Shown: positions 1,868-32,000, counted from the stretch's first letter. The stretch is DNA of 32,000 nucleotides from Trichodesmium erythraeum IMS101 (GCF_000014265.1 NC_008312.1:3210001-3242000), one strand, 5' to 3'. Translations and numbers: made by a program. Notes: generated by a model from the letters alone, not told the origin.

Positions 1868-2171
1868 CTACTGAGGCCGAATAGTTAAAAGTTGGAGAAA
1901 TGTTAATGAATATTGAAAGTATGCTGATTATCTACTATCATAGATTAAGTTTTTTTCAAAAAATTACAGTTTTTTTTCATGGTTTACCAGCTCAAATGAA
2001 GTCAATTAAGACATAGTTAAAAGTTAACAATTACCAATAGAAAAAAAACCATACTTGCCAAATATCTAGGTGTGGTTTGCTGATTTATAGCTTCCCTAAT
2101 GTCATACTTATAACTGGGGAATCAAAGCTTGTATTTTTGAGTAAGAATAACTAAAATGACTATTAAAGTTA

Positions 2172-3308: not shown

Positions 3309-4297
3309 ATTTTCCATTTTACTTTGGTGACGGAAAACGGAAACCAAATAATACACCAGCTACTCTACCTGTGTCGCGACGAGCCGAATTTATCAAACCA
3401 GAAAATTATTTGGCAGATCCTGGTCTTCGCGATGCCTGCAACGTTGCTTTACTCTTGGGTCAACCCTTATTACTTACTGGAGAACCCGGTACTGGCAAGA
3501 CTTTGTTCTCTTATAGTCTAGCCTGGGAATTGGGTTTTGACGAACCACTGAAGTTTGAAACCAAGTCTACCAGCACTGCCCGGGATTTATTTTACAGCTA
3601 TGACTCCTTGAAACAATTTCAAGATGCCCAAAACAGTATATTAGACAGAAAACCTCTAGACTATCTGACATACAATGCTTTGGGTCAAGCCATCTTGCTC
3701 ACTAAAGAGCCCTCTGAAATTGAGAACTTTGTACCTCCAGATTTTTTTCACCCTGGTAAAAGACGCTCTATCGTTCTCATTGACGAAGTAGATAAAGCAT
3801 CCCGTGATTTTCCTAATGATATCCTCAACGAATTGGAGTATCTATACTTTCGGGTCCGAGAACTGGGCAATATCAAGATTGAAGCTAACTCCAAACTACA
3901 GCCTATAGTCGTCATTACCAGCAACTCTGAGAAAGACCTTCCGGATGCATTTTTGCGGCGTTGTGTTTACTACAATATTCCTTTTCCACAAAAAGAGCGC
4001 CTTGAGAATATTGTTACCAATAGACTAGGTTTGTACTCTGCTGGTAGTAGTGACTTTCTCCAGGACGCTCTAGATATTTTTTTTCAGCTACGAAAAAGCG
4101 GCTTGCGGAAGAAACCGACTACTTCTGAACTTTTGGGTTGGATGATAGCGCTCCAAGAAATTTCAGGCGGTGCAGAAAACCCCCTGGTTCAGTCTGAGCT
4201 GGCTCTGCAAACCTTGAGTAATTTGATTAAAACTGCTGAGGATCAAGATAAAGCTAAGGAGATAATGAAGCAATGGGTAAAAAGTCGCCAAAGTTAA
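3305..4297 (+). CDS. MoxR-like AAA+ ATPase (AAA_5 type)
   Basis: Walker A LLLTGEPGTGKT, Walker B IVLIDEVDKA, sensor/arginine region DAFLRRC. About one third identical by eye to the second MoxR-like ORF at 28692-29666. Translationally coupled to both neighbouring genes. Confidence 0.85.
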   Translation: MNFPFYFGDGKRKPNNTPATLPVSRRAEFIKPENYLADPGLRDACNVALLLGQPLLLTGEPGTGKTLFSYSLAWELGFDEPLKFETKSTSTARDLFYSYDSLKQFQDAQNSILDRKPLDYLTYNALGQAILLTKEPSEIENFVPPDFFHPGKRRSIVLIDEVDKASRDFPNDILNELEYLYFRVRELGNIKIEANSKLQPIVVITSNSEKDLPDAFLRRCVYYNIPFPQKERLENIVTNRLGLYSAGSSDFLQDALDIFFQLRKSGLRKKPTTSELLGWMIALQEISGGAENPLVQSELALQTLSNLIKTAEDQDKAKEIMKQWVKSRQS

Positions 4298-14427: not shown

Positions 14428-16050
14428 ATGAGCTATTGTATAAATCCTGCCTGTCCTCAACCTCAAAATTTAAATAGTGTTAATAAATGTACTGCCTGTG
14501 GTTCACAGTTAATTTTGCGCGATCGCTATAAAATTATTAAACCTATTGGGAAAGGAGGTTTCGGAGTAACTTTTCTAGCCAAGGATATATCTTTGCCAGG
14601 AGCTCCCATTTGTGTAATTAAAGAACTACGGCCATCTAGTACAAAAGCAAGTGAATTAGAAATGGCTAGAAAACTATTTCAGCGAGAAGCAGAAACACTA
14701 GGAAAAATTGGCCATCATCCCCAAGTTCCCAGATTATTAGATTATTTTGAATGGAAGAAACGTTTTCATCTAGTTCAAGAATATGTAAGTGGTTTAACCT
14801 TAAAACAGGAGGTCAAAAAACAGGGAATATTTACTGAAGAACAAGGGAAAAAGTTTCTAATTGAAGTGTTGTCAGTCATAGATTATATACACACTCAAGG
14901 AGTAATTCACCGAGATATTAAACCTACAAATATTATTCGGCGGAGTGAAGATGGTCATTTAGTTCTGATAGACTTTGGTGCTGTCAAAGATCATGTGAAC
15001 CAAACTTATATATCAGGTGGTACAGGAGAAACTGCTTTTACAAATATCTCTATAGGTACTTCAGGTTTTTCACCACCAGAACAAGTGCTTTTGCGACCTG
15101 TATATGCAAGTGATATATATGCTTTGGGAGTAACTACCATTTTCTTACTGACGGGAAAAACTCCAAATAATCTTGGTTATAATCAGGTTAATGGCGAAAT
15201 TCTCTGGCATTCTCAAGTTAATGTTAGTGATATGTTTAGGGAAATCTTGAAAAAAATGCTAGAAGTTTCTGTAGAAGATCGCTTCCAGTCAGCAGAAGAA
15301 CTTTTAGCAGCTTTGAAGACAAAACAACCTGAGAAAAAACAGGTACAACCCAGACTAGATGATGCTGTTAAAACTATATTTAGAGATGAAATTACAGTTT
15401 TTAATGACAATAAAGATAATTTTTCATCGATGTCTGCCAATATTAAAATTGCTCAAAAAATTCGGCAACGCAAATATGGTTTAGAAAAAAACTCTACAAA
15501 TCAAGTTCTACCTAATTCTGTGAAGACGAAGCCCAAACATATTGAAGGATATTTGACGGTAGTACCTCCAAAAAGCAAAGCAACTAATACAACACAATTG
15601 GGTAATGAAACTCCTATAAAATGGACTGCGGCGACCTTGCGCAGTGCTTATATGAAAGGTAGAAGAGATTTTGCTGAGTGTAATTTAATTCGCTTGAATT
15701 TGTGCAATGCTAAGTTATCTGGAGCTAATTTTTATGGGGCAAATTTGGGTGGAGCTAATTTGCAAGGTGCAGATTTATCTGATTCTAATTTTGGTCATGC
15801 TAATTTAACTAATACTATCCTGAAAAATGCAACTCTGACTAAAGCTTATTTAAGTACAGCCAGTTTGGCAAATTCTAATTTGCAGAACGCAAATATGAAA
15901 AATACTTATTTGAGTGGCGCAAATTTAGGGGGTGCTAATTTGTATGGTGCTAATCTCACAAATGCAATAGTGAGCGATCGTCAACTTGAGACAGCAAAAA
16001 CTAATTGGTGGACGATTTTTCCTAATGGTAAAAGAGGTTCGATATTCTAA
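14428..16050 (+). CDS. Ser/Thr protein kinase with N-terminal Cys4 zinc-ribbon-like motif and C-terminal pentapeptide repeats
   Basis: CINPACPQ...CTACGS. Glycine loop GKGGFGVTF, VIKEL lysine, HRDIKPTNII catalytic loop, DFG, SPPE. From about aa 420 onward, A(N/D)LxG-type pentapeptide repeats (GANLGGANLQGADLSDSNFGHANL...). Confidence 0.9.
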   Translation: MSYCINPACPQPQNLNSVNKCTACGSQLILRDRYKIIKPIGKGGFGVTFLAKDISLPGAPICVIKELRPSSTKASELEMARKLFQREAETLGKIGHHPQVPRLLDYFEWKKRFHLVQEYVSGLTLKQEVKKQGIFTEEQGKKFLIEVLSVIDYIHTQGVIHRDIKPTNIIRRSEDGHLVLIDFGAVKDHVNQTYISGGTGETAFTNISIGTSGFSPPEQVLLRPVYASDIYALGVTTIFLLTGKTPNNLGYNQVNGEILWHSQVNVSDMFREILKKMLEVSVEDRFQSAEELLAALKTKQPEKKQVQPRLDDAVKTIFRDEITVFNDNKDNFSSMSANIKIAQKIRQRKYGLEKNSTNQVLPNSVKTKPKHIEGYLTVVPPKSKATNTTQLGNETPIKWTAATLRSAYMKGRRDFAECNLIRLNLCNAKLSGANFYGANLGGANLQGADLSDSNFGHANLTNTILKNATLTKAYLSTASLANSNLQNANMKNTYLSGANLGGANLYGANLTNAIVSDRQLETAKTNWWTIFPNGKRGSIF

Positions 16051-19984: not shown

Positions 19985-20479
19985 ATGAGTTTACTAAATA
20001 AGGTATTTGAAGCTTACAATGGACATCGGGTTATGTTTTCACAACCTGAAGCAATAGCTGCAATTGCAGCGTCTGCAATTGCTTCAGATGGTTATCTTTT
20101 AGAACAAGAAACAGAGCTGGTTATAACACTTTTATCTCAAATGGAAGTATTTAAAGGCTATTCAGAAAAACAAATTACGAATATGCTTAATAGGTTGTTA
20201 AGTACACTCAGCGTCAAAGGAATTAATAATGTAGTAGCGATAGCTAATGATTCACTACATCCGGAGTACAAAGAAGCAGTTTTTATGTTAGCTACTGAAA
20301 TAATTTTAGTAGATGGGGTTTTATGTGGTAAAGAACAAGCGTTTTTAATTGATTTGTTTCAGGTATTGGAAATCTCTTCAGAAAGGGCTTCACAAATTTT
20401 TACCTCTAAATCAGAGGCCTATCGGGTTACTAATAAGAAATCTAAAAACTATAGAATTAATCAAGGTTCTCTTAAGTAG
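19985..20479 (+). CDS. TerB-like (tellurite-resistance TerB family) small protein
   Basis: Two helical halves, each with the TerB-type pattern A..ASDG.L...E / E.ILVDG.L...E..FL..L...L.I. Size matches the conserved cyanobacterial TerB-family proteins. Confidence 0.55.
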   Translation: MSLLNKVFEAYNGHRVMFSQPEAIAAIAASAIASDGYLLEQETELVITLLSQMEVFKGYSEKQITNMLNRLLSTLSVKGINNVVAIANDSLHPEYKEAVFMLATEIILVDGVLCGKEQAFLIDLFQVLEISSERASQIFTSKSEAYRVTNKKSKNYRINQGSLK

Positions 20480-20556
20480 ATGAGAATATAGTTTGATCAT
20501 AAAATTACGAACATAGATATACTAGATAACTTAAGGATCATTTCTTATTGATTAAT

Positions 20557-21741
20557 TTATTTACATGAAATAATTTTTTCATAGGCTTGAATGGTTTGTG
20601 TGGCGATCGCTTGCCAACTATAATTATTTTTCGCTAACTCTTGAGCATTCAAACCCCGGCGTTTTCTCTCTGCTTCATCCTGCAAAGCTAATTTCATTAA
20701 AGCAGCCATGTCTTCTGTTTTGCAACCACCAACCCAACCTGCTTCTGCATTTGCTACATCTTGATAAATATAAACTTGGTCTGAAATCACTACGGGGGTA
20801 CCTGCTATCATAGCCTCTGCTACTGCAATACCAAAGTTTTCATAATAAGAAGGTAGTACAAATAAATCAGCAATTCTTAATAAACTTGTCTTTATTTCCC
20901 CTGTAACAAACCCCATTATTTTGGTAAACTTAGCAATAGGTGAAGCCTTTATTTGTGAGTAAATTTGTGCCTCATAATTAGGATCTTGAGGATTTGCACC
21001 TGCTAAGATAAATTGAAAATCTACCCCTTGTGCTAACAATTTTTCTAAAGCAGGTAATAATAAATCTAGTCCTTTTTTTGGTTCAATGCGAGACATAAAT
21101 AAAATTATGGGATGTTTCACTTCTACTCCTTGAGATCGGAGACTATTAACTAAATTTTCATCTTGAATATTCTCTAGAGTATTGACTCCATTGGGAATTA
21201 CTAAGTCTTTTGTAGATAAGCCAAATCTTTCGGAAACTTTTGCCTCTTGTGTTGTGGTAAAATGAAGGGCAGCAGCATGAGCAATATTCCGCTTTTCTAA
21301 GAGAGAAACATAAATTTTTTTGAGTTGTTTTTTCTTGCGTAGATCAGCGGGGTCTAAGGTTCCTAATGGTCTTAAAATATAGGGTAAGTTATTGGTTCTA
21401 GCAACAGTTGCAGCTATGGTTGTTACTGGTGAAAAAAGAGCATGAATATGAGCTAAATCAAATTCAGTAGCGTGTTCATTTAACCATTGTAATAATTGTA
21501 GAGAAAATTTATAACGACGAAACGGAGAACAAGGAAAATAACGAATTTGATAACCATTTTGTTTGACAGGTTTATTGATAGGAACATCTAAGGGTGGCTG
21601 ACCAGTGTCTCCATTAGAATTTGTGGTGAGAATGGTAACATCTATGTTCTGAGTGGCAAGAGCGGTAGAAAGTCCTATAACCATTTGACTCGGACCGCCA
21701 TAAACAAGAGATATAGATGGTAATATTTGTACTATTCGCAT
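20557..21741 (-). CDS. Glycosyltransferase, GT4 (group 1) family
   Basis: GT-B architecture: N-terminal MRIVQILPS..YGGP, C-terminal R.EPKKG.D.LL and E-x7-E region PSYYENFGIAVAEAMIAGTPVV. Confidence 0.85.
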   Translation of the reverse strand: MRIVQILPSISLVYGGPSQMVIGLSTALATQNIDVTILTTNSNGDTGQPPLDVPINKPVKQNGYQIRYFPCSPFRRYKFSLQLLQWLNEHATEFDLAHIHALFSPVTTIAATVARTNNLPYILRPLGTLDPADLRKKKQLKKIYVSLLEKRNIAHAAALHFTTTQEAKVSERFGLSTKDLVIPNGVNTLENIQDENLVNSLRSQGVEVKHPIILFMSRIEPKKGLDLLLPALEKLLAQGVDFQFILAGANPQDPNYEAQIYSQIKASPIAKFTKIMGFVTGEIKTSLLRIADLFVLPSYYENFGIAVAEAMIAGTPVVISDQVYIYQDVANAEAGWVGGCKTEDMAALMKLALQDEAERKRRGLNAQELAKNNYSWQAIATQTIQAYEKIISCK

Positions 21742-21809
21742 AACTTTGTCTGGTTTTTCTATATATATAAATGAAATGCTATATAAAACTGATATAATTC
21801 CAGTGATAT

Positions 21810-22226
21810 CTACTCACTAAGTAGGGTGCACCTAGGGCCTCTGCCAGCTCTTGCGTTTTCTGATGCATAGCAGGCAATAACACTGAGAGCATTACAAGCT
21901 CTGCGATCGCCCCGACGGCAAAAACGTCCTAGGTTCCTTGGGCCGCCACTTTGGTTAATTAGGGCTAAAAAATTACAGGCGCGAGTATTATTTCGCTGTC
22001 GGCAATAATAGTTGATCTGAGCAATGCCTCCTTGAGTGGCAGTGTTAACTAAGTTGCAAGCTCGTGAATTTCCCTCCCCGCAAAGAATGCCTAAGGCCGC
22101 GCAGCTCTGCACATTTCCGTTTTTGTAGCAACTTTCGTAAAAGTTGTTAAGTTGATTTGATTTTGCAGGTAATATTACGGATAGGAGTGTAGCAACACTA
22201 AGCATTCCCAGAAATATCCATTTCAT
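21810..22226 (-). CDS. Secreted cysteine-rich repeat protein (hypothetical)
   Basis: Start taken at the ATG at 22226, giving MKWIFLGMLSVATLLSVILPAKS (signal-peptide-like). The mature part has four repeats ending in ..(S/R)xxACN.L.. No recognised family. Confidence 0.45.
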   Translation of the reverse strand: MKWIFLGMLSVATLLSVILPAKSNQLNNFYESCYKNGNVQSCAALGILCGEGNSRACNLVNTATQGGIAQINYYCRQRNNTRACNFLALINQSGGPRNLGRFCRRGDRRACNALSVIACYASENARAGRGPRCTLLSE

Positions 22227-22317
22227 ATTTGATAACTGAACTATTTGGATGTGCTCTGAGCATAATAACATGAAAATATGGTTGCTTCCATAGAATTTTT
22301 CATTGGTTCACCCTAAA

Positions 22318-22565
22318 GTTTATTACTTTGTAGCTTGGCTTGAGGTCACTAAACCCAAAAAAGCTAGATAATACCGCTGCAGCAGGAAATTTCAGGAAAA
22401 AGAAAAACAGGGTACACAGCAAAAGGGGAAAGGATAAAAGGTTTATTACTTTGTAGTTTGGGTTGAGTTCGCCAAACCCAACAAAGATAGATAATACTGT
22501 CGCTGCAGGAAATTTCAGGAAAAAGAAAAACAGGGTAAAGGGCTGAAGGGGAAAAGAGAAAAGGG
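22318..22565 (-). repeat. Two tandem ~124-bp units (22318-22440, 22441-22565) directly 3' of the stand-alone FGS gene; a partial third copy lies 3' of the 892-aa gene (about 23916-23968)
   Basis: Direct alignment: both units start gtttattactttgtag and share ggaaatttcaggaaaaagaaaaacagggta. They are roughly 80-85% identical by eye. On the sense (minus) strand each unit starts with a pyrimidine-rich tract cccttttc.cttttcccctt and contains a ttgggtt..aacccaa hairpin. Confidence 0.85.
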
Positions 22566-22697
22566 TTAAAGAGTTCTCCCGCCGTCGCAGACTACACGAA
22601 AACCGATAACGTCGTAGTGGACGTCGCGCCCAGCAGAGTTGTAGCGAATCGCAGAACGGCAATCATTAGGAATGTTGACCCAGGAACCGCCCCGCAG
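22566..22697 (-). other. Candidate DGR variable region (VR-B), including the stop codon
   Basis: See the DGR finding. Gapless 132-nt alignment with 23969-24100, with mismatches concentrated in codon positions 1-2 of NNY codons. Confidence 0.6.
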
Positions 22698-23411
22698 CGG
22701 TGAACGTTTTTTATTTCCATTTAGCCAAACACTGCCATCTGTAGGAGCATTTTCATAATTATCATGCCACTCATCAGCACACCATTCCCAGACATTCCCG
22801 TGCATATCGCTCAACCCAAAAGAATTAGCTACTTTAAAATAACCTACAGGTGTAGTTTCCTGACGATATTCTCCTTTGAGTCCTCTGCCGTAAGAACCTT
22901 CATCGCCTGTCCCGTCATAGTTGGCTAAGTCTGTAGTAATAGTTTCTCCAAAATGAAAGGGAGTTGTAGTTCCAGCACGACAGGCATATTCCCATTCAGC
23001 TTCCCTTGGTAGTCTATAATTTCTTCGAGTTAGTTTTGAAAGTCGTTGGCAGAATTCTACTGCTTCGTACCAATTCACTCGCTCTACTGGTCTTTGCCAT
23101 CTATCTATATCTTGGTACGGTTTTTTAAAGTAAGATGGATCTGGGTCTAAATCTTGTTTTTCTTTCAGGTCTGCTCGGGAGGCGATCGCTCTCCACTGTC
23201 CTTGAGTAACAGGATAACGGCCCATGAGAAACTCGGAGATAGTTACATTATGTTGGGGTCTTTCATTATTTCTACTTCCTTCTTCAGATTTTGGTGCGCC
23301 CATTGTAAAGGTGCCACTAGGAATTAAAAACATTTCCAGAGGCACCTCAGCATATTCTCTGTAACCTCGAATTTTTTGTTTTTGACGTTTTATGATAGGT
23401 GTTGTCGCCAT
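22566..23411 (-). CDS. Stand-alone FGE-sulfatase (SUMF1/EgtB/PvdO-type, FGS) domain protein
   Basis: 281 aa. Motifs IPSGTFTMG, RPQH.V....F.MG.YPVTQGQW, YRLP.EAEWEYACRAG, HGNVWEWC, LRGGSW, GFRVV. Roughly 75% identical by eye to the C-terminal domain of the 892-aa protein. Confidence 0.9.
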   Translation of the reverse strand: MATTPIIKRQKQKIRGYREYAEVPLEMFLIPSGTFTMGAPKSEEGSRNNERPQHNVTISEFLMGRYPVTQGQWRAIASRADLKEKQDLDPDPSYFKKPYQDIDRWQRPVERVNWYEAVEFCQRLSKLTRRNYRLPREAEWEYACRAGTTTPFHFGETITTDLANYDGTGDEGSYGRGLKGEYRQETTPVGYFKVANSFGLSDMHGNVWEWCADEWHDNYENAPTDGSVWLNGNKKRSPLRGGSWVNIPNDCRSAIRYNSAGRDVHYDVIGFRVVCDGGRTL

Positions 23412-23888
23412 GTAACTACTTTTGCAAATGTTGGGGGGGCTGAAGGAATTTTCAGTTTTACTCTATGTTGCTTAAAGTTTCCTCACCTAATTTTACCTTG
23501 AAGATAATCTTTTTGCAATTTTTTTAGTCTTTTTCTTCCAGGATGGAGATCACTGTTTCTAACTCAAATTGTTTGAGGAAAAACTCTAGAGTCTAGAAAT
23601 ATAGACTTAGGTTTAAATGCTTTTTATACGGTACAGAAATTGTTTGCAAACCTGTACAGAAGAGCAGGGAATTTACTCACCCCCAACCCCGACGTGGAGG
23701 GAAGGTCAAATTATTAGTCGTTATATCTCCGACTATAAATTTATGACTTTTGGGGAATCTTTCAATTATTGGGACATAGTATTTGACTAAATCATAGGTT
23801 TTTTGGACAACTGATAATTCTTTCATTTTTTTTTACTTTAGGGTTTTGTCATTTGTCGAAAATTTAAGACACTTGACACTTGGACATC

Positions 23889-23914
23889 AAAAAAATTTTT
23901 CCCGCTTCGCGGGA
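23889..23914 (-). terminator. Putative intrinsic terminator of the 892-aa gene
   Basis: Minus strand reads tcccgc-gaa-gcggga, followed by aaaa and then ttttttt. This is a 6-bp GC-rich stem (23900-23914) about 55 nt after the stop codon. Confidence 0.5.
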
Positions 23915-23968
23915 GGTAAAGGAAAAAGAAACATAGTGTAAAGGGCAAAAGGGGAAAAGGGAAAAGGG

Positions 23969-24100
23969 TTAAAGAGTTCTCCCGCCATCGCAGACAAGAC
24001 GAAAACCATCATAGCTGACGTGGACGTCGCGCCTAAGATAGCCGCTGCGAACCGCAGAACGGCAATCAATAGGAGAGTTGCACCAAGAACCGCCCCGCAG
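23969..24100 (-). other. Candidate DGR variable region (VR-A), including the stop codon
   Basis: See the DGR finding. Pairs with 22566-22697. Confidence 0.6.
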
Positions 24101-26647
24101 ACGGGTATAACTATCAGTAGAACTGTCTTCGTTACTATCAACCCAAGCGCTTCCATCTGTAGGAGCTCCCACATAGTTATCATGGCTATCATCAGCACAC
24201 CATTCCCACACGTTTCCATGCATATCATATAATCCAAAAGCATTAGCAGGAAATTGGCCTACAGGAGTTGTTTGTTTTTTATATTCTCCTTTGGGCCCAT
24301 CGCCGTAAGTAATATTACCATCATAGTTAACTAACTCAGGTGTTATAGTTTCTCCAAAGTAGAAAGGTGTAGTAGTTCCTGCCCGACAGGCATATTCCCA
24401 TTCTGCTTCACTGGGCAACCTGTACTTTTTTCCAGTTAATTTCGATAGTCTTTTACAAAATTCTACTGCTTTGTACCAACTCACCGTCTCAACTGGCCTT
24501 TGCCATCTATCTATACCTTTATATGGTTTTTTAAAACGAGATGGATCTGGGTTTAGGTCTTCTTTTTCTTTCAGGTCTGTTCGGGAGGCGATCGCTCTCC
24601 ACTGTCCTTGAGTAACGGGATATTTGCCCATAAAAAAGGAAGGGACAGTCACATCATGTTGGGGGCGTTCATCATCATAGCTACCTTCTTCACTTTTAGG
24701 GGAACCCATAGTAAAAGTACCACTAGGAATAGCCACCATTTCTAGACTAACGTTATCTGGAAGGCTTTGAGTAAAGTAAAAAGCTTTATGAATTGTTCTT
24801 TCGACAATTTTACCCAGCCTGTTAACAGTAGGAGTTTCAAAACTCCACTCTTGTAATTCTATTTCAACTTCCTTAGTTTCTTCTTCAAAAACAATAGTAG
24901 CAATTTCAATTTCAGTTTCAAACTCAATTAAATCTTTTATTTCATTAGTAGAACCAGTATTAGAAGCTCTTATTTGATTAGCAAAATAAGCATAAGAACC
25001 CCCTAATTTCTCCAATACTTCTGCCTGAACTTGAGCTAAAGGATAAACCTGTTTAGCTAGCTTATTCTCAGGTTTTGAAGAATCTATCAACAGAGCTTCA
25101 AATTCTTTGGGACTTATTCCCATTTTCTCAGCTAAATAAGAAGATACTTCCTCAATAACATCGGTAATTTCATCAACAGTTAACCCACTCAATAGTTCAT
25201 CCCGCACCCCATCAAAAAACTCAAATTCGATTTCATCTGGATTAATATTAGGGGTGATTTTTTCACTTAAAGGTTTAAATAACCCTCCCATTAATACTTC
25301 TGCCACATGACCTTGGTTGAACTGAGGAAGCATAGTATATTGAATTACTCTAATCACAGGTAAAGTAACAAGAACTGCGGAGAGATGTTCAGCTAGTCTA
25401 ACGGCATTAGGTGAGGCAATTTCTTGAAACCTTTCTACTCTTTCGGTAGCCGTAATTTCTTCTTGAACAAAGTTAGAATAACGATGATTATCAGGCTTAA
25501 TTCCATAACCAACAGACTGATTATTTCCTACTCCCATTAATAATTTTGACCATTCTTCTAAAATATTAGGGTCAAGACAAAGGACGGGTAATTTAAATTC
25601 TCCATCTTGAGAAATTTCTTGTTTTTTTGAACTAGGAATAATAGTTAAATTCTGATTAGAAGTAAGACGAACAGAAGCATTTAATTTTAAAGACTTTTGT
25701 TGACCAAGATTAGTGCGGAGCCACAAACGTTCTGGTAGAAGCTGCAATAAATTTACCATCCCTTTTCGCCCCCACTCCTGCAAAAGAGTATAGGTTTCTG
25801 GGCGAGACCAAACAGAAGAAACTAGATCGCTTACTAATAGAATTAAAGTTTTTCCACTGGTAGCCCCAATAAATTCTGGAGAGTAGGGACGCATCTGAGG
25901 ATCATCGTAGTGGAAAATTTCAATCCTTTGGTTTTGAGAGGATAAAATCAAAAATAGTATAAATTCAGGAGATACCCTAACAATAAGTTTAAACAACAAT
26001 TCCTGATGTAATAGTTGAGAAGAATTAAATTTTAATCCCCTAGTTTCAGTATGACGAAAAATCCCCAAACTTTGGAGAAATTTCCTCAACTCTTTAATAG
26101 TTTGTTTCCAAATTACGAGGGAGTTATTTACTTCTATAACCAATACTAAATCTAGCCAACGACGGGTTAAAGTTGGTTGTTTAATGGGCATCCAAATCTT
26201 TTGTTCGACAAAAAAATCAATAGTTTTAGCTTCGTTTAATTCCTGTTCTGTTGAGGATGGAAATTTTCGGCGTAAAGATTTTAAAGCAATACCAAGCTCC
26301 TGTTTATTGGGAATAGCTGGAGCATCGGGAACTTGTAGAGGGTAACGTTCCTTTTTATTATTGTCTGTTTTAGGTAAATATTTATCAGCAGCAGCTTTCG
26401 GATAAAGATCTAAATTTGTTTTTGCTGGAAGTTCAGGAATATTAACTTTTAAATTTCGTCTATTTTTCTCTGAGTAAATTTGATTGTTTGATTCAGATCC
26501 TTGAGCATCTTTTTTATCAGTTTCTAATAATTCTAATTCTCCATCCGGCAAAGTTTTTACCCATAACCAAATTATTTCTGCTATTTCTCTAGCAGTTGGG
26601 TCATAATTAGCTTTTTGTAATCCTTCTATGAAGTTAGAAATCGACAT
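23969..26647 (-). CDS. Multidomain protein: N-terminal helical domain, vWA-like domain with degenerate MIDAS, linker, C-terminal FGE-sulfatase (FGS) domain
   Basis: 892 aa. N-terminus FIEGLQKANYDPTAREIAEIIWLWV. ALKSLRRKFPSS.EQELNEAKTIDFF...RRWLDLVLVIEVNNSLVIW and TLILLVSD (about nt 25718-26245) parallel the vWA-like region of the 841-aa protein. The last ~260 aa (about 23972-24750) form a full FGS domain. Confidence 0.8.
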   Translation of the reverse strand: MSISNFIEGLQKANYDPTAREIAEIIWLWVKTLPDGELELLETDKKDAQGSESNNQIYSEKNRRNLKVNIPELPAKTNLDLYPKAAADKYLPKTDNNKKERYPLQVPDAPAIPNKQELGIALKSLRRKFPSSTEQELNEAKTIDFFVEQKIWMPIKQPTLTRRWLDLVLVIEVNNSLVIWKQTIKELRKFLQSLGIFRHTETRGLKFNSSQLLHQELLFKLIVRVSPEFILFLILSSQNQRIEIFHYDDPQMRPYSPEFIGATSGKTLILLVSDLVSSVWSRPETYTLLQEWGRKGMVNLLQLLPERLWLRTNLGQQKSLKLNASVRLTSNQNLTIIPSSKKQEISQDGEFKLPVLCLDPNILEEWSKLLMGVGNNQSVGYGIKPDNHRYSNFVQEEITATERVERFQEIASPNAVRLAEHLSAVLVTLPVIRVIQYTMLPQFNQGHVAEVLMGGLFKPLSEKITPNINPDEIEFEFFDGVRDELLSGLTVDEITDVIEEVSSYLAEKMGISPKEFEALLIDSSKPENKLAKQVYPLAQVQAEVLEKLGGSYAYFANQIRASNTGSTNEIKDLIEFETEIEIATIVFEEETKEVEIELQEWSFETPTVNRLGKIVERTIHKAFYFTQSLPDNVSLEMVAIPSGTFTMGSPKSEEGSYDDERPQHDVTVPSFFMGKYPVTQGQWRAIASRTDLKEKEDLNPDPSRFKKPYKGIDRWQRPVETVSWYKAVEFCKRLSKLTGKKYRLPSEAEWEYACRAGTTTPFYFGETITPELVNYDGNITYGDGPKGEYKKQTTPVGQFPANAFGLYDMHGNVWEWCADDSHDNYVGAPTDGSAWVDSNEDSSTDSYTRLRGGSWCNSPIDCRSAVRSGYLRRDVHVSYDGFRLVCDGGRTL

Positions 26648-26803
26648 TAGGCCTTAGGTTTTAGGTGGCAGGTGTTAGTATGCAGTCCGAGCGCTCCCCC
26701 CTCGAACTGCACCCCAACATTTCTCAATAAGCGTTTTCTTTTTGTTGAAATATTCTTCAGTTGCAGAATGCAAAACCCCTTCTATATATAGCTTTTAATT
26801 AGC

Positions 26804-27550
26804 TTATAACCCCGTGAACATTAACAGACTCCTTTGTTCCCAGAGAAGAAAAAGACCACTGAAAATCACAAAAGCAGTTACTAATTGACGGAACAGCTGA
26901 GGACTAATTTTTTCTAATACTAAATGACCCAACCTATTTCCTGGATAAGCAGCTACTCCTATGAGTATCCCATATCCCAAATAAGGTAAAGTTAAATTAC
27001 CAAAAATTGCATAAGTAATTGCCTTAAAAATATGAACTACCATCCGGTTAACTGCTTGAGTTCCCAATAATTCTTCTTTTTCCAAACCATAATTCAGGTA
27101 AAATGGTGCAAGTAAGGGTCCCATACTACCAATAATTCCTGATAAAAAGGAATAAATAAAACCTGCAGGCAAAAAATACCATGCACGAACAGTAAAAGAT
27201 TTTTCTTGATTTTTAATAATTAAATTTATCCCAGAGATCAATAGAAATAATCCTACTAAAAAACTGAGCCATCTGACAGGAATTTGAGTGAAAATAAAAG
27301 CCCCTAAACAACCACCAAAAATAGCACCAGGTAGTTCCCACAAAATGACAGTCCAGTTAATTTTTTGCCAATAAGCAAAAACACGTTCAGCGTTACCAAG
27401 AATTCCTCCAGTCGTAATGACTGGTGGAATAGCTATAGTTCCTAAAAATAAACCTACTATTGGCATTAAGAGAAAGGAACTACCCCCACCTGCTAGGTTG
27501 CTGACAAACCATCCAACCATACTTGCTAATGCTAACCAGAGATTGGTCAT
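26804..27550 (-). CDS. TauE/SafE (DUF81, TSUP) family anion-exporter-like membrane protein
   Basis: 248 aa, about 7-8 hydrophobic helices, two-fold internal symmetry. Glycine-rich first helix with GGGSSFLLMPIV, typical of the family. Confidence 0.75.
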   Translation of the reverse strand: MTNLWLALASMVGWFVSNLAGGGSSFLLMPIVGLFLGTIAIPPVITTGGILGNAERVFAYWQKINWTVILWELPGAIFGGCLGAFIFTQIPVRWLSFLVGLFLLISGINLIIKNQEKSFTVRAWYFLPAGFIYSFLSGIIGSMGPLLAPFYLNYGLEKEELLGTQAVNRMVVHIFKAITYAIFGNLTLPYLGYGILIGVAAYPGNRLGHLVLEKISPQLFRQLVTAFVIFSGLFLLWEQRSLLMFTGL

Positions 27551-27752: not shown

Positions 27753-28223
27753 CTATTCATAAAATAATCCTTCTATTGGCACACCATCTTCATGTTTATT
27801 TTCCTTAGATTTTCCTGGTAATGAATTACCATCAACACCTATACGATGAACTGGAAGTTTGTCTTTTTCTGCGCCTACCCGTAACAAGACAAGAGGTTCA
27901 TCTCCACAACTTTGAAACTTATAAAAGCATCCTCTGGGAAGCATAATACCTTGATTTATAGAAAAGACACCAACTTCACCATCTTTGCCAAAAAATCTGG
28001 CTTTTCCTGCTAAAACAATAAAAGTATGATCCTCTCCTGGATGAGAGTGCAAAACATTTTCTCCTCCTTGAGCGTAACATTTAATTCTCACGCTCATTAA
28101 ATCAGTTTTCGCAATAGTATAGTCGCTCCGGCCTTTACTCAAAAGCTGGGTTTTAAGTTGAAAAACTTGTGGTTCTAGACTTTGATTGGAGGATTTTTCT
28201 ATGGTTTCTTGATTAGCAATCAT
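27753..28223 (-). CDS. Cupin-domain protein
   Basis: Cupin motif 1 G-x5-HxH-x3,4-E (GGENVLHSHPGEDH) followed by a beta-rich region with a second motif-like segment (G..P.G..Y.F). 156 aa. Confidence 0.7.
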   Translation of the reverse strand: MIANQETIEKSSNQSLEPQVFQLKTQLLSKGRSDYTIAKTDLMSVRIKCYAQGGENVLHSHPGEDHTFIVLAGKARFFGKDGEVGVFSINQGIMLPRGCFYKFQSCGDEPLVLLRVGAEKDKLPVHRIGVDGNSLPGKSKENKHEDGVPIEGLFYE

Positions 28224-28510
28224 AAGAGATTTTTAAAATAAAAATTAATACAAATTCCTAACTATTAATTATACATACCCTGTCCCCAATATCCGAAAAT
28301 ATCCTAGAATATCTTTATAATCATCCAAGAGAGACAAAATTATAACTATAACTTACTTAGACATTATATGAGAATGCAGTTGCTGTTTGTGCCTGGTTAA
28401 TAATTTTTACTTTTTGAAGTGCCTATAAAGTGAGAATTTTTATTCTGGCTCCATCCCAATAAAAGTGGTTTATAAAATTTTTTTGTAGTCAAATAACTTC
28501 CTAAATATTT

Positions 28511-28605
28511 AGGTTTTAGGTGTTAGGTTTTAGGTTTTAGGCGGCAGGTTTTAAGCGGCAGGTTTTAGGCGGCAGGTTTTAGGCGGCAGGTTTTGGGTTT
28601 TAGGT
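28511..28605. repeat. Heptamer tandem array, 13.5 units (AGGTTTT alternating with AGGCGGC/AGGTGTT); STRR-like
   Basis: Read directly: aggtttt aggtgtt aggtttt aggtttt aggcggc aggtttt aagcggc aggtttt aggcggc aggtttt aggcggc aggtttt gggtttt aggt. A 3-unit copy (aggtttt aggtggc aggtgtt) lies at 26656-26676. Confidence 0.95.
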
Positions 28606-28691
28606 ATCATCATAAATTTGAAATTGGAGGTAAGAGCTTAGTTAGATGAATTTTAAAATTAGAACTTATAACTAATAATTAGTAATTAACT

Positions 28692-29666
28692 TTACCTTCG
28701 ATCTAAAGACTGCAATAAACATTCAAGTAGATTTTTTTTATCCTGTTCTGAGGGAGACTTTTTCTTAGTTAGCATAAATATAAAATTAAGTAACTGATCG
28801 GTGGCGAGATTTTTACCCCCTTCTCGCTCTCTAACAAATCTTTCAATGAACTCTTTTGCTATATTTAAAGTATCTGTATCTGACTCTAAATTATCAAAAT
28901 GAGATTCAACAATTTGAGCAAGTTGTTCTCTGGTAGGTTCAGGCATTTCTAGTTGCAAACATCGCCGTAAAAAAGGTGGAGGAAAATCACGCTCCCCATT
29001 ACTTGTCATAATTACTAAAGGAAATTGTTGACAAGCAACTTTTCCCTCGTAAATATCAACTTTTTGATTATCATAAGTTCTCAAATTAACAATTTTTTCC
29101 TGCTCTGATATTCTTGCTAATTCAGGAATTTCAAATTCTCCTTCCTCAAATAAATTTAATAGATCGTTAGGTAAGTCAATGTCACTTTTATCAATTTCAT
29201 CTATTAATAATACCCTTGGATATTCATTGGGAAGAAATGCTGTTCCTACTGCACCTAACTGTATATATTTACCAATATTTGGTTTGTTTCCTAGTTGAGC
29301 ATCTTGTAAACGACCAATAGCATCATAACGATATAAACCATTACTTAAAGTAGTGCGGGTATTAATTGGCCATGTTAATACTTTTCCTAATTTTAGTTGA
29401 TAGGCGATCGCATAAGCCAAAGAAGATTTTCCAGTTCCCGGCTTTCCTGTCACCAAAAGAGGGCGACGCAAATATAAAGCGGCATTAACTAACTCAACTT
29501 GCCTATCCGAGACTTGAAAGGTTTTCCCTTTAATTTCTTCCCGAGACTTTTTTTCAGTAGTTTTGGCTTCAGTATTAAAACTTCTCCAAGGTGGAGGCTC
29601 TGGTAAATTTTTTATCCCATCATGTGGCTCATGATCTTTGTTAAAAATTTGCCAATTTTCAGTCAT
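28692..29666 (-). CDS. MoxR-like AAA+ ATPase (AAA_5 type), paralogue of 3305-4297
   Basis: Walker A LLVTGKPGTGKS, Walker B VLLIDEIDKS, PPFLRRC. It shares with the first MoxR the motifs Y.YD....QDAQ, LPND.LN and MTSN.E.D.P. Confidence 0.85.
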   Translation of the reverse strand: MTENWQIFNKDHEPHDGIKNLPEPPPWRSFNTEAKTTEKKSREEIKGKTFQVSDRQVELVNAALYLRRPLLVTGKPGTGKSSLAYAIAYQLKLGKVLTWPINTRTTLSNGLYRYDAIGRLQDAQLGNKPNIGKYIQLGAVGTAFLPNEYPRVLLIDEIDKSDIDLPNDLLNLFEEGEFEIPELARISEQEKIVNLRTYDNQKVDIYEGKVACQQFPLVIMTSNGERDFPPPFLRRCLQLEMPEPTREQLAQIVESHFDNLESDTDTLNIAKEFIERFVREREGGKNLATDQLLNFIFMLTKKKSPSEQDKKNLLECLLQSLDRR

Positions 29667-29752
29667 AATTAATTAATTTATAGTTAATAATTTAATAAAT
29701 TTATACAAGTTTAAAGATATGAGAAAAATACTTTTATTTTCTCATATAGAAT

Positions 29753-31135
29753 TTAAGAACTTAAAGCATATTTAGGCTCACTAGGTTCCGGTGGCATTCT
29801 CTCAGGGTTATCCCATAAGAGGCAAATATGCTTTCCAATATGTTCTTCTCCTTTTGCCTTTTTTCTCTCATCTGTTACTTCCTTTGGTAACTGATTAAAA
29901 TTACCTTGAACATTCCTGAGTATTCGATTAATTTCATTTTGGCAAGAAATGGTTTGTAAATCACGCCTTGACCAAATAGCAAGAGGCAGAGAGTTGAGTA
30001 CAATTAGGTCAAAAAACTTAGTTAGTTCAGAAAGTTTATTTAGTTTAATTCCTACGGTTTTATTTAGCCCTAATTCATAATCATCTGTGTGATAAAAATC
30101 TACCACATTACCTTGATTAGAGTTTAAATTTTCCCATTTTCTTTGCCAAGCTCCCCCTAAATCTTGAGCTGTATATTTTAACCTTTCAGCTAAACGAAAA
30201 GTAACAATATATTGCTTACACATTTTTGCAGGACGGTTGAGCTTTGTTACCTCCAGCCAATCAAAATAAGAGTTACTTTCTATAAGCAAATTAGTATCTA
30301 AAAATAACTCTATCCTCAAGTCTTTACTGCCAATTTTTTTCATTCTCTTATTGGATTCGTCTATCAGTTCTGTTAATTTTTTAGATAGATATTCCCGTTC
30401 AATCAAGTCTTTTTCTTGAATATTACGGATTAATTGACTAGACCAAAACCAACTTTGTATTTGTAAAGAACTATAATTCTTTTTCTTAAGCTCAATCAAC
30501 AAATAAGATTCTAGTAACTTGGGATTTTGGGTATCAGGTGAAGATTTTCTAAAATTTGGTGTTGCTGTTTCCTTAAACTCAGAATATCCAAAAAAATTAC
30601 CGTATTCTTCTAGCCATTTATCTAGGGTTTTTTGTAGATTTGAATCAGAAACTTGTTGTTGAATTCCTACTACAAATGGAATAATAAGCCGATATTTTTT
30701 TAGGGGAATAATACGATTTAGTTGAGTCAAAATATCATCAATATTCTTAACTGTTTTATCTGCCATTTCAGGGCGACATGATAAGTATATTTTTTCTAAT
30801 TTTTCAAAAGATTGATTCTGTAAATACTCTCCCAAATCATTAATTGCTTTATCTTCTTTATTCCTAGAACCCGATAAGTTTGTCTGTTCTTGTCTGTCAG
30901 TCTCAAACTCATTAAAAGCCTTAGGATTGATTTCTTGAATTTCATTTAGTAAATCATCTATTTTTTCGTGTTTATCAATATAATCAAATAAAATTCGGAA
31001 TCTTTGATTTTTACTTTGTCCATTTATAAATTGGCTATAAACATCATGAAAGCTATAAAAAACTAAATCTTCAAATTCGTCTGGTCCTAGAGCTTTGTTA
31101 ATTAAATTCCGAATAAGTTTAAGATCATATTTCAT
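29753..31135 (-). CDS. EAD-like N-terminal helical domain plus VMAP-C-like body (vWA-MoxR-associated adaptor; inferred)
   Basis: Start taken at the ATG at 31135 (MKYDLKLIRNL). The N-terminal ~75 aa fit the pattern L..L..L...L...EF..L.F........F.......K..R...L.DY......I..LL..I...NP seen in effector-associated/death-like helical domains. C-terminal motifs LRIELFLDTNLL, LPLAIWSRRD and HICLLWDNPERMPP match my recollection of VMAP C-terminal domains. Confidence 0.6.
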   Translation of the reverse strand: MKYDLKLIRNLINKALGPDEFEDLVFYSFHDVYSQFINGQSKNQRFRILFDYIDKHEKIDDLLNEIQEINPKAFNEFETDRQEQTNLSGSRNKEDKAINDLGEYLQNQSFEKLEKIYLSCRPEMADKTVKNIDDILTQLNRIIPLKKYRLIIPFVVGIQQQVSDSNLQKTLDKWLEEYGNFFGYSEFKETATPNFRKSSPDTQNPKLLESYLLIELKKKNYSSLQIQSWFWSSQLIRNIQEKDLIEREYLSKKLTELIDESNKRMKKIGSKDLRIELFLDTNLLIESNSYFDWLEVTKLNRPAKMCKQYIVTFRLAERLKYTAQDLGGAWQRKWENLNSNQGNVVDFYHTDDYELGLNKTVGIKLNKLSELTKFFDLIVLNSLPLAIWSRRDLQTISCQNEINRILRNVQGNFNQLPKEVTDERKKAKGEEHIGKHICLLWDNPERMPPEPSEPKYALSS

Positions 31136-31213
31136 TATAAACAAACAAATAAAAAAACAATGTAATAGACTAATTAATCACCAAACAAAATGATAACTAA
31201 TAACTAAAATATC

Positions 31214-31999
31214 TTACTGCCGCATAATCCAATAACCCCCCTCTTCCGACGGTTCTAACCGACCTCTTCGCTGCCCTGGGGAAGTATTATTAATTAATAA
31301 GTCCCGTATATCTTCAAGTACCAAACGAGCATCAGCAAAATAACCATGTCCTAATAAAGTTAAATCTATCTTAGAAACTTTTACCGTGTCTATTCCTTCT
31401 ACAACAGTAACAGGGGGGAAAAAACCAGCTCGGCCATGCTGATGAATAAGCGCTGAAGTTGCTAAGGCTTTGTCTTTTGATGATATGTATAATGTAGTTC
31501 GTTCTGCTAATTGATGATATCCTTTAGCTAACTCTTTAAACAAGTCAATATCTACATCTGGAGCGGCTAAAATAATTTGCCCAAAAGCAATATTAGTTAT
31601 TGTTTGAACTTGAGAAATAATTCTTTGGACTGCTCTGAGTAAACCTCGGTTTCCCATACTATGAGCAATAATATGAATTTTCTCAATGTCCGTTTTTTCG
31701 GCTAGGTTGAGTAAAAATTCTGTCATGTACTTTTCGCTGGCTTCAATACTTGCCTCGTCTACCGGATATGCTGATAATTTCCCTTGAGATGGCCAACTAT
31801 AAAAGGCTGTAATTCCTGGCACTTGCAGGTCAAACCCCATTTGTGCGGCTCTAATAGCTGCATCTTCAAAATTGACGTTGTATCCATGAACAAAGACTAA
31901 AGCAGACCTTTCATTTATTTCATGGTCTTTTAATTCTTCGTTGATATTTTCCCAAAATAGTTCTTTTTCCAGAATTTGCAAACTTTGAAAATGTAGTTT
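31214..31999 (-). CDS. DUF900-type alpha/beta-hydrolase (esterase/lipase-like), N-terminus outside the window
   Basis: LVFVHGYNVNFEDAA, SWPSQG, nucleophile elbow IIAHSMGNRG (GxSxG-type), AAPDVD, Y.SSKDKAL. The listed start is a TTG, and the frame stays open to the right window edge. Confidence 0.8.
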   Translation of the reverse strand, partial: KLHFQSLQILEKELFWENINEELKDHEINERSALVFVHGYNVNFEDAAIRAAQMGFDLQVPGITAFYSWPSQGKLSAYPVDEASIEASEKYMTEFLLNLAEKTDIEKIHIIAHSMGNRGLLRAVQRIISQVQTITNIAFGQIILAAPDVDIDLFKELAKGYHQLAERTTLYISSKDKALATSALIHQHGRAGFFPPVTVVEGIDTVKVSKIDLTLLGHGYFADARLVLEDIRDLLINNTSPGQRRGRLEPSEEGGYWIMRQ

Positions 32000-32000
32000 G

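Follow-up and report, generated by a model that had tools for sequence, protein, structure and literature searches.

A putative DGR-associated, VMAP-type MoxR-vWA conflict system in Trichodesmium erythraeum IMS101

Overview of the Locus

A stretch of 32,000 nucleotides from the genome of Trichodesmium erythraeum IMS101 (NC_008312.1:3210001-3242000; referred to here as the window) ends with three consecutive minus-strand genes for a DUF900 alpha/beta-hydrolase, a 460-aa protein with an N-terminal effector-associated domain (EAD), and a MoxR ATPase. Very probably these genes make up the 5' part of a ternary VMAP-type MoxR-vWA conflict system linked to a diversity-generating retroelement (DGR), with a putative function in anti-invader defense or programmed cell death (PCD). 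The initial annotation had treated the three genes as the whole module, which was too narrow, since an obligatory vWA partner encoded at 23969-26647, with a DGR-diversified FGS domain, belongs to it as well. Read along the minus strand, the locus consists of the genes for EAD7-CHAT-DUF900, EAD7-VMAP, MoxR, a cupin and a TauE protein, and vWA-FGS, followed by stubs of the Avd and reverse transcriptase (RT) genes and a stand-alone FGS gene. Its main components are as follows, the Pfam and NCBIfam matches lying above the curated thresholds:

31214-32000, minus strand: EAD7-CHAT-DUF900 effector, 3' part of the gene (residues 400-661 and stop; Pfam DUF900)
29753-31135, minus strand: VMAP third component, 460 aa, with EAD7 (about 30923-31114), a helical variable middle region, and VMAP-C (about 29804-30415)
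28692-29666, minus strand: VMAP-type MoxR AAA+ ATPase, 324 aa (Pfam AAA_5/AAA)
23969-26647, minus strand: vWA component, 892 aa (NCBIfam SAV_2336_NTERM, E 8.8e-102; Pfam FGE-sulfatase, E 1.2e-56)
23970-24106, minus strand: DGR variable region VR1, last 137 nt of the vWA-FGS gene (template comparison)

The EAD7-CHAT-DUF900 Effector

The hydrolase had been described as a DUF900 protein with an intact HSMGN nucleophile elbow that is cut by the window edge. This was borne out: the part inside the window matches Pfam DUF900 with an E-value of 3.9e-45 and 154.6 bits (cut-off 20.5), the elbow is intact with the codon of the nucleophile Ser514 at 31658-31660, and the open reading frame (ORF), whose stop lies at 31214, continues up to the window edge with no upstream stop. 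The window covers the alpha/beta-hydrolase part of the effector alone, the 5' 1.2 kb encoding EAD7 and CHAT lying beyond the edge. The window was extended using contig L001 of assembly GCA_018457135.1 (metagenome-assembled genome (MAG) GBRTRLIN201), with which the reverse-complemented window is identical over 13,309 of 13,309 shared bases. The complete gene (L001:6468-8453) encodes 661 aa, 100% identical to the IMS101 protein, in which Pfam places EAD7 at residues 11-74, CHAT at 113-258 and DUF900 at 418-628.

That the then unseen N-terminus would carry an EAD matching that of the neighboring 460-aa protein (the adaptor) had been set as a test beforehand. The N-terminus is an EAD7 domain sharing 54% identity over 74 residues with the EAD7 of the adaptor (E 3e-27), and the two domains are close paralogs. 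The protein suggested as the effector is no bare hydrolase, as a CHAT protease is fused to DUF900. The CHAT (PF12770) match, which lies outside the window, has an E-value of 1.6e-10 and 41.4 bits (cut-off 24), and the region aligns at E 1e-14 with a solved CHAT protease (PDB 8tl0, chain A), the homologous SAVED-CHAT of type III CRISPR systems, with which it shares the dyad motifs HF.GHG and NAC: FSGHG (with H163) and NAC (with C209) of the effector align with ILHFIGHG and VVLNAC of 8tl0_A. SAVED-CHAT is activated by cyclic oligoadenylate via SAVED, whereas the effector described here is without SAVED and would be recruited through EAD7.

H163 and C209 of CHAT as well as S514, D548/D550/D576 and H618 of DUF900 are invariant in 17 of 17 effector homologs (50-81% identity). 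The Ser-Asp-His triad with a GxSxG elbow that characterizes DUF900 (PF05990) is predicted to be present, D548, D550 and D576 all being candidates for its aspartate. The catalytic residues of CHAT, DUF900 and the MoxR ATPase are intact and conserved, and the DUF900 part may act as a lipase/esterase toxin, as initially suggested.

A word-indexed search retrieved 527 relatives of the effector at E<=1e-5, the best of which nearly all combine EAD7, CHAT and DUF900 and come from filamentous or colonial cyanobacteria. Among 80 metagenomic DUF900 relatives that were scanned, the genomic context was compared between EAD7-bearing and EAD7-less homologs. Where the flanking sequence sufficed, an EAD7 gene followed the EAD7-bearing effector gene in six of seven cases, as did MoxR where the contig reaches it, whereas this EAD7 gene, VMAP or MoxR followed none (0 of about 26) of the EAD7-less CHAT-DUF900 or DUF900 homologs with >=3 kb of flank. 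Since the context tracks EAD7, we infer that this domain couples an otherwise free-standing CHAT-hydrolase cassette to the VMAP system.

Two further arrangements were observed around effector genes. Outside the window, 657 bp upstream of the effector gene and on the same strand, L001:3900-5810 encodes a 636-aa protein with a caspase domain (Peptidase_C14) and FGS, which fits the description of Tery_2077, a published IMS101 DGR target, and may be a further arm of the same system. In the metagenomic relatives L008 (2292-7687) and L010 (71-6346) a second, divergently transcribed EAD7-VMAP/MoxR/vWA system is located on the other side of a single EAD7-CHAT-DUF900 gene, the second VMAP of L010 being split into two ORFs; as two VMAP systems flank one effector gene there, one effector may serve two sensors.

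The VMAP Component and the MoxR ATPase

The gaps originally given between the three genes are exact: 78 bp (31136-31213) separate the hydrolase from the adaptor and 86 bp (29667-29752) the adaptor from MoxR, all on the minus strand. The 460-aa protein had been read as an effector-associated domain joined to a VMAP C-terminus, and Pfam returned these two domains and no unrelated family: EAD7 with an E-value of 9.9e-10 and 38.5 bits (cut-off 32), and VMAP-C (PF20028) with an E-value of 2.8e-16 and 60.6 bits (cut-off 27) at residues 244-447. The motifs LRIELFLD, LAIWSRRD and LLWDNPERMPP all occur in the adaptor and fall into conserved columns of the VMAP family alignment. The family is large, with 1,939 representative relatives (clusters) at E<=1e-3. 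The AlphaFold2 (AF2) model shows a confident helical bundle over residues 1-80 (pLDDT about 88-91).

Between the two Trichodesmium lineages represented by the window and the sister Trichodesmium genome L007, the adaptor EAD7 (30890-31135, minus strand, versus L007:10001-10246) is the most diverged part of the locus, with 76% amino acid identity as compared to 98% for VMAP-C. In its 82 codons the EAD7 differs by 24 non-synonymous and 2 synonymous changes, as against 15 and 7 in the other 378 codons of VMAP; the clustering is striking, though the contrast in the ratio of non-synonymous to synonymous changes is not significant (Fisher p 0.06). As a cause of the fast change, gene conversion between both copies of EAD7 was considered and found unsupported, the copies being just 49-54% identical in both lineages.

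The best Pfam match of the ATPase encoded at 28692-29666 is AAA_5; its Walker A (GKPGTGKS) and Walker B (LLIDEID) motifs are intact, and it carries a TSN sensor and FLRR. An N-terminal extension contains WQIFNK (with K for the G of WxhapG) and PPWRSF (compare PsWRxa), and the protein was assigned to the VMAP clade of MoxR from its gene context and these N-terminal motifs, without a tree. It is 40-58% identical to the gene product that follows VMAP-C in the 13 distant reference-genome loci described below, most of these alignments beginning at residue 4-5, while a phmmer search against the PDB gave no match at E<=0.01. It had been read as clearly paralogous to a second ATPase at the left end of the window (3305-4297). 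The two are homologous (30% identity, E 7e-31), with an alignment that begins only at residue 31; they are related at the family level and represent different subtypes (VMAP and iSTAND).

The vWA-FGS Gene

The protein encoded by the 892-aa ORF starts with a helix and a linker, continues with a vWA domain (about 25448-26200) and a helical vWA-L region, and ends in an FGS domain (23993-24742). The ORF is the fourth core gene of the system, namely the vWA component with a variable C-terminal FGS. The protein is homologous to the product of the gene that follows MoxR in every related locus with enough flank. When a profile of its residues 150-400 was searched against the PDB, only integrin alpha-1 I (vWA) domains were retrieved (best E 0.0029), with LDLVLVIEvNNS opposite the metal-binding MIDAS strand LDIVIVLDGSNS and LLVSD opposite IVTDG. 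The identification as vWA is drawn from this sequence profile together with synteny; Pfam matches of the vWA N-terminus at E<=10 were noise only.

The ORF is uninterrupted and was called in full in an independent scaffold (L028). In the public annotation of MAG GBRTRLIN201, vWA-FGS starts at Met371 (522 aa), which drops window positions 25537-26647 (minus strand), that is the N-terminal helix and the entire vWA domain.

Recurrence of the Gene String and Selection on the Core Genes

The initial annotation expected the trio to recur elsewhere, and the gene string was found again in Trichodesmium, Anabaena, Nostoc and Merismopedia, in Cyanomargarita- and Tolypothrix-type contigs, and in metagenomes. 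As it recurs in independent assemblies and in other genera, it is not a product of chance. In every context with flank among those examined (Trichodesmium MAG_R01, two metagenome lineages, Anabaena cylindrica, Nostoc UHCC 0870 and Merismopedia glauca), the next genes downstream of the effector gene are one that bears EAD7 or VMAP-C, and MoxR. The full layout of effector, EAD7-VMAP, MoxR and vWA-FGS, then Avd/RT, is present in L007, L008, L035 and L031, and the same order without DGR genes in L010, L030 and L034.

In more distant organisms tblastn located VMAP-C, MoxR and a homolog of the N-terminal 560 residues of the 892-aa protein, in that order, in 13 reference-genome loci that had been recovered with the VMAP alignment; in two of these the VMAP-C match came from the recovery scan and not from tblastn. 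The loci stem from Aetokthonos, Dictyobacter, Anaerolineales, Chloroflexaceae, Lentzea, Actinacidiphila and eight Streptomyces, and thus from cyanobacteria, Chloroflexi and actinomycetes.

The ratio of non-synonymous to synonymous substitution rates (dN/dS) relative to L008 was 0.15 for MoxR, 0.22 for the effector (DUF900 0.13, CHAT 0.26), 0.29 for vWA-FGS and 0.74 for VMAP, with EAD7 and VMAP-M at about 0.95. The core genes are therefore under purifying selection, VMAP only weakly so, and its fast evolution fits the observation of Kaur et al. (2020) for the VMAP class. Relative to L007, the vWA core has a dN of 0 and a dS of 0.031, and MoxR has had a dN/dS of 0.54 since the two Trichodesmium lineages split; between these two closest lineages dN/dS is about 1 for the effector and VMAP, at few substitutions.

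Variable Regions and Remnants of the DGR

The DGR-related features of the window, in addition to VR1, are the following:

23677-23826, minus strand: Avd stub, a 49-aa ORF of which 40 aa match Avd (tblastn, 87.5% identity, residues 1-40 of 113)
23468-23614, minus strand: RT fragment, 49 aa (tblastn, 67% identity, residues 274-322 of 352)
22566-23411, minus strand: stand-alone FGS protein, 281 aa (Pfam FGE-sulfatase, E 2e-56)

The template repeat of the sister genome is located at L007:18934-19070. VR1 of the window differs from it by 19 mismatches, 18 of which are at template adenines, and in L007's own VR1 this applies to 11 of 11 mismatches. Because the mismatches are adenine-specific, the tip of the vWA-fused FGS can be identified as a DGR variable region; dN in the VR1 stretch is 0.24 and dS 0. 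No template repeat (the third repeat copy) was found in the window, in which 271 bp (23466-23736) stand in for 1,662 bp of L007. An assembly artefact as the cause of the RT deletion was ruled out, the independent metagenome scaffold L028 having the same stubs. In L007, L008, L029, L031 and L035, vWA-FGS is accompanied by bAvd and RT, usually together with a second short FGS gene.

The stand-alone FGS gene is a paralog of the vWA-fused FGS (75-82% nucleotide identity) and occupies the same position in L007, L008, L028 and L029; an exact-protein look-up of the 281-aa sequence returned no record. Of the 21 mismatches between its VR-like 3' end, VR2 (about 22567-22697), and the L007 template, 14 are at adenines, and VR2 has begun to decay.

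T. erythraeum has DGRs with remote targets, including the neighboring Tery_2077 (Pfreundt et al., 2014; Paul and Eren, 2022), remote RTs exist in the species (PMC8867640), and 12-18 DGR target loci have been published for IMS101. With the local RT and template gone, the sensor could be diversified further only in trans, by one of the remote T. erythraeum DGRs.

VR1 and VR2 are both followed by the same pyrimidine-rich 60-nt tract AACCCTTTTC.CTTTTCCCC... (within 23860-23969 and 22457-22565, minus strand), which is absent from the template repeat, and a GC-rich hairpin CCCGCGAAGCGGG (23900-23914) is additionally present 3' of VR1. The tract and the hairpin may be DGR target-recognition elements.

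The Cupin-TauE Insertion

Between MoxR and the vWA gene lie the following features:

28497-28616: 7/14-nt tandem repeat (minus strand CCTAAAACCTGCCG), within the spacer of 468 bp that follows MoxR
27753-28223, minus strand: cupin gene (Pfam Cupin_2)
26804-27550, minus strand: gene for a TauE/SafE-family membrane protein (Pfam TauE)

The cupin-TauE segment was found in Trichodesmium loci only (the window, L007 and L028). It is absent from L008, L010, L030, L031, L034, L035 and the 13 distant reference-genome loci with enough flank, in which the matches to MoxR and the subsequent vWA lie no more than about 1 kb apart. MoxR and vWA are contiguous in L008, L010, L030 and L034-L035, and the spacing between the two is about 10-130 bp in L008 and L010 (53-55% VMAP identity) as well as in the Nostoc, Cyanomargarita and Tolypothrix-type loci. 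The cupin and TauE genes are thus probably not part of the VMAP system. A scan for promoters and terminators gave counts that did not exceed those in shuffled sequence and was uninformative on co-transcription.

The repeat, which reads AGGTTTT / AGGCGGC on the plus strand, has a short second copy (26649-26691) abutting the vWA start codon, so that repeat arrays flank both ends of the cupin-TauE segment; they may mark the recombination behind the insertion. The insertion is older than the split of the two Trichodesmium lineages. Constraint on the vWA gene has persisted since then, its core having taken 0 non-synonymous changes at a dS of 0.031.

In the sister genome the cupin gene is directly followed by a duplicate of the last 296 bp of MoxR (L007:13248-13543; 94.6% identical, encoding the last 68 aa), which looks like a footprint of the cupin gene insertion. 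The window is without this copy.

Relation to Described Systems

VMAP systems were described by Kaur et al. (2020; eLife 9:e52696, PMC7159879) as ternary systems with the strict order VMAP, MoxR, vWA. Pairing of EADs, pairing of a caspase with an alpha/beta-hydrolase, a cyanobacterial vWA-FGS fusion, DGR linkage in about 80% of the cyanobacterial VMAP systems and fast evolution of VMAP were reported in the same study, the genome set of which included T. erythraeum IMS101 (supplement). VMAP-type ternary systems are typical of multicellular bacteria.

The locus described here shares with these systems VMAP-C, a MoxR with the N-terminal motifs of the class, a vWA protein beginning with a helix and ending in a variable FGS, the order 5'-VMAP-MoxR-vWA-3', an EAD on VMAP that is matched next door, a caspase-superfamily domain accompanied by an alpha/beta-hydrolase, a filamentous host and a fast-evolving VMAP. 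It differs in that the 2-kb cupin and TauE insert separates MoxR from vWA, in that CHAT and hydrolase are combined in one EAD7-tagged polypeptide whereas Kaur et al. found the caspase on VMAP and the hydrolase next door, and in the degenerate MIDAS and the loss of the local Avd, RT and template repeat. The elements as such had all been described by Kaur et al. (2020), and the locus-specific deviations (CHAT-hydrolase fusion on the EAD7 protein, cupin and TauE insert, degenerate MIDAS and decayed local DGR) are modest.

A DGR-diversified "antigen sensor" model for multicellular bacteria was put forward by Doré et al. (2024, PNAS). The FGE-sulfatase/C-type-lectin domain with an adenine-specific variable region and the association with MoxR, vWA and VMAP are common to that model, to the IMS101 DGR loci and to the present locus, which differs in being without a working RT or template.

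In the Esr pathway of Schaalia odontolytica (bioRxiv 10.64898/2026.09.08.750141) MoxR-vWA was shown experimentally to be needed for the response to a parasite, and there as well the MoxR-vWA pair is coupled to a sequence-variable sensor domain. In contrast to the system proposed here, Esr senses through a beta-propeller filament at the surface and signals through a kinase/FHA phosphorelay by which Esx secretion is activated, and it has no VMAP, EAD, caspase/hydrolase or DGR. Esr nevertheless supports sensing by a variable domain and signaling via MoxR-vWA.

Proposed Function and Alternative Explanations

In the VMAP-type conflict system proposed here, the hypervariable FGS/C-type-lectin domain on the vWA protein would bind a ligand derived from an invader, and the MoxR AAA+ ATPase together with its vWA partner and the VMAP scaffold would form an ATP-dependent threshold switch. 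Homotypic EAD7-EAD7 contact would recruit and concentrate CHAT-DUF900 on VMAP, where proximity would switch on the caspase-like protease and the Ser-hydrolase; their targets would be proteins of the cell and probably esters or lipids. Killing or arrest of the infected cell would protect the remainder of the filament.

Several points weigh against this interpretation. The order VMAP-MoxR-vWA is kept in the window, but the contiguity of MoxR and vWA is broken by 2 kb with two unrelated genes. The MIDAS of the vWA domain is degenerate (EVNNS instead of DxSxS); the AF2 model of the domain, with an alternating beta/alpha pattern, is of moderate quality (mean pLDDT 58), and a Foldseek search with it returned nothing significant, though many of the weak matches were vWA domains. 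VMAP-C was left unresolved by AF2 (pLDDT 30-40), and no significant Foldseek match was obtained with the VMAP model. A locally active or complete DGR was ruled out, as only the Avd and RT stubs and no template remain. PADLOC has no model for a VMAP system and returned only generic "chat" and AAA matches, and in the literature no experimental study of any VMAP system was found. The direction of signal flow as well as the protease and hydrolase targets given above are conjecture. As a lead only, weak RNase-H-like/ASKHA Foldseek matches (E >= 7e-3) to a short beta-beta-beta-alpha-beta stretch of the VMAP model, in which VMAP-C has a pLDDT of 30-40, may hint at a resemblance to that fold.

Whether the caspase/hydrolase pair acts as terminal effector or as a step in signal processing is answered differently by the published models. 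The alternative that survives best, possible though unlikely, is the model of Kaur et al. (2020), in which the VMAP middle region senses, MoxR licenses the caspase/hydrolase, and the vWA protein is cleaved so that FGS is released; FGS would then be the effector that neutralizes invader molecules, and CHAT-DUF900 a signaling protease module rather than a toxin. In that study the caspase and trypsin domains at VMAP N-termini are indeed regarded as signaling peptidases and FGS as the effector, yet EAD7 is placed among the EADs that "primarily recruit other effectors". The near neutral or faster evolution of VMAP-M and EAD7 (dN/dS about 0.95) is as would be expected for an arms-race surface and thus speaks for sensing by VMAP, whereas the diversification of FGS by a DGR fits a ligand-recognition sensor (Doré et al., 2024). 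Residues 565-603 of the vWA protein, which precede FGS and are modeled with a pLDDT <50, could hold a cleavage site; against a role of CHAT-DUF900 in vWA processing, the approximately 26 CHAT-DUF900 loci without VMAP or vWA suggest a self-contained unit. The reading with FGS as the sensor is favored over this signal flow because CHAT-DUF900 is widespread without VMAP and vWA and because the DGR targets FGS.

It is improbable that the system instead serves endogenous cell death or signaling of Trichodesmium (bloom collapse, nutrient or oxidative stress, kin recognition) with a self or environmental ligand of FGS. Caspase-like PCD is known in Trichodesmium, and regulatory roles of the diversified proteins have been suggested in earlier work on DGRs, but a fast-evolving VMAP and a DGR-hypermutated FGS tip are hallmarks of conflict with a partner that changes, and conflict-type genes (GT4-conflict, caspase-FGS, the iSTAND system) are in the neighborhood. 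The sole experimentally studied MoxR-vWA relative that was found feeds a signaling cascade without direct killing, but even this relative senses a parasite.

Least probable is that the locus is a decaying, non-working relic in which the vWA gene was uncoupled by the insertion, the DGR was lost and the MIDAS has degenerated, as might be read from the repeat-rich junctions of the cupin/TauE insertion, the Avd and RT stubs, EVNNS, the non-adenine changes accumulating in VR2 and the dN/dS of about 1 of effector and VMAP between the closest lineages: the four core ORFs are intact in several independent assemblies, the catalytic residues are in place, vWA core (dN 0 versus dS 0.031) and MoxR (dN/dS 0.54) were constrained after the post-insertion split, the E-for-D MIDAS variant also occurs in relatives with a contiguous operon (P0200, P0201) and was thus not caused by the insertion, and T. 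erythraeum has remote DGRs with many targets in trans.

Extending the favored interpretation, we tentatively suggest that CHAT-DUF900 is a self-contained two-enzyme executioner cassette, widespread on its own, that is plugged into different sensors by short death-like adaptors such as EAD7. In this locus it would be under a lectin sensor rewritten in trans by a remote DGR and would execute the caspase-like death at bloom collapse, a proposal that we regard as speculative. If it were true, the tolerated 2-kb insertion would imply that strict contiguity of MoxR and vWA is not mechanistically required. Blooms of Trichodesmium, which is of global importance as a nitrogen fixer, end in cell death of a caspase-like type. 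In the locus, a hypervariable lectin sensor is set over a conserved fusion of caspase-like protease and hydrolase, with the published DGR target Tery_2077 as a neighbor; which of the many Trichodesmium caspase homologs respond to biotic triggers thereby becomes a testable question. The paired EAD7 domains are a clean test case for the EAD principle that is directly usable for binding and structure work, while the cupin/TauE insertion and the lost RT amount to a natural experiment on how much disruption such systems tolerate. Given that no experimental characterization of a VMAP system was found, any tractable homolog, such as those in the Nostoc and Anabaena loci, would be informative.

Neighboring Genes and Minor Observations

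Further features of the window are the following:

893-6798, plus strand: left module, iSTAND-type MoxR-vWA, with a caspase (893-1867), iSTAND (2172-3308; Pfam E 1.8e-14) and MoxR (3305-4297)
19985-20479, plus strand: TerB protein
20557-21741, minus strand: glycosyltransferase, Pfam GT4-conflict
21810-22271, minus strand: Cys-rich 153-aa protein, no family

The VMAP locus had been likened to the left module, with effector and adaptor in swapped positions. The architecture is shared, but the swap did not hold, as both modules have, along transcription, an EAD-tagged enzyme, an EAD-tagged third component and MoxR. Common to both are thus an adaptor-tailed enzyme, a third component with the matching adaptor, MoxR and a large downstream protein; the left module differs in having an inactive STAND NTPase as third component, a MoxR without N-terminal extension, an adaptor that is not EAD7, and a downstream protein that is membrane-bound and without FGS. 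The C-terminal 58 residues of the left caspase are 41% identical to the iSTAND N-terminus (E 2e-11). This adaptor is coiled-coil-like and without a Pfam match, its pairing being analogous to that of EAD7.

The downstream 841-aa protein (4273-6798, plus strand) belongs to no Pfam or NCBIfam family and has several hydrophobic segments, one of them repeated; its gene contains a 186-nt direct repeat at 6281-6382 and 6467-6568. The protein has the vWA-like strand motifs YLVLIDRANYSD and LLIFSDAEG, and an hhalign comparison with the vWA profile was negative. Probably the protein represents the vWA component, anchored in the membrane, that has been described for iSTAND systems.

As the GT4 gene holds its position in L007 and L028, the conflict island may extend to 19985-22271. 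A protein with WG repeats is encoded at 68-550 and a fusion of a Ser/Thr kinase with pentapeptide repeats at 14428-16050 (both plus strand); for these, no link to the VMAP system was seen. Directly downstream of the 281-aa FGS gene, two tandem 123-nt units (22315-22560; 85% identical) overlap a 120-aa ORF with a repeated peptide, and at least one copy of the unit is present in L007.

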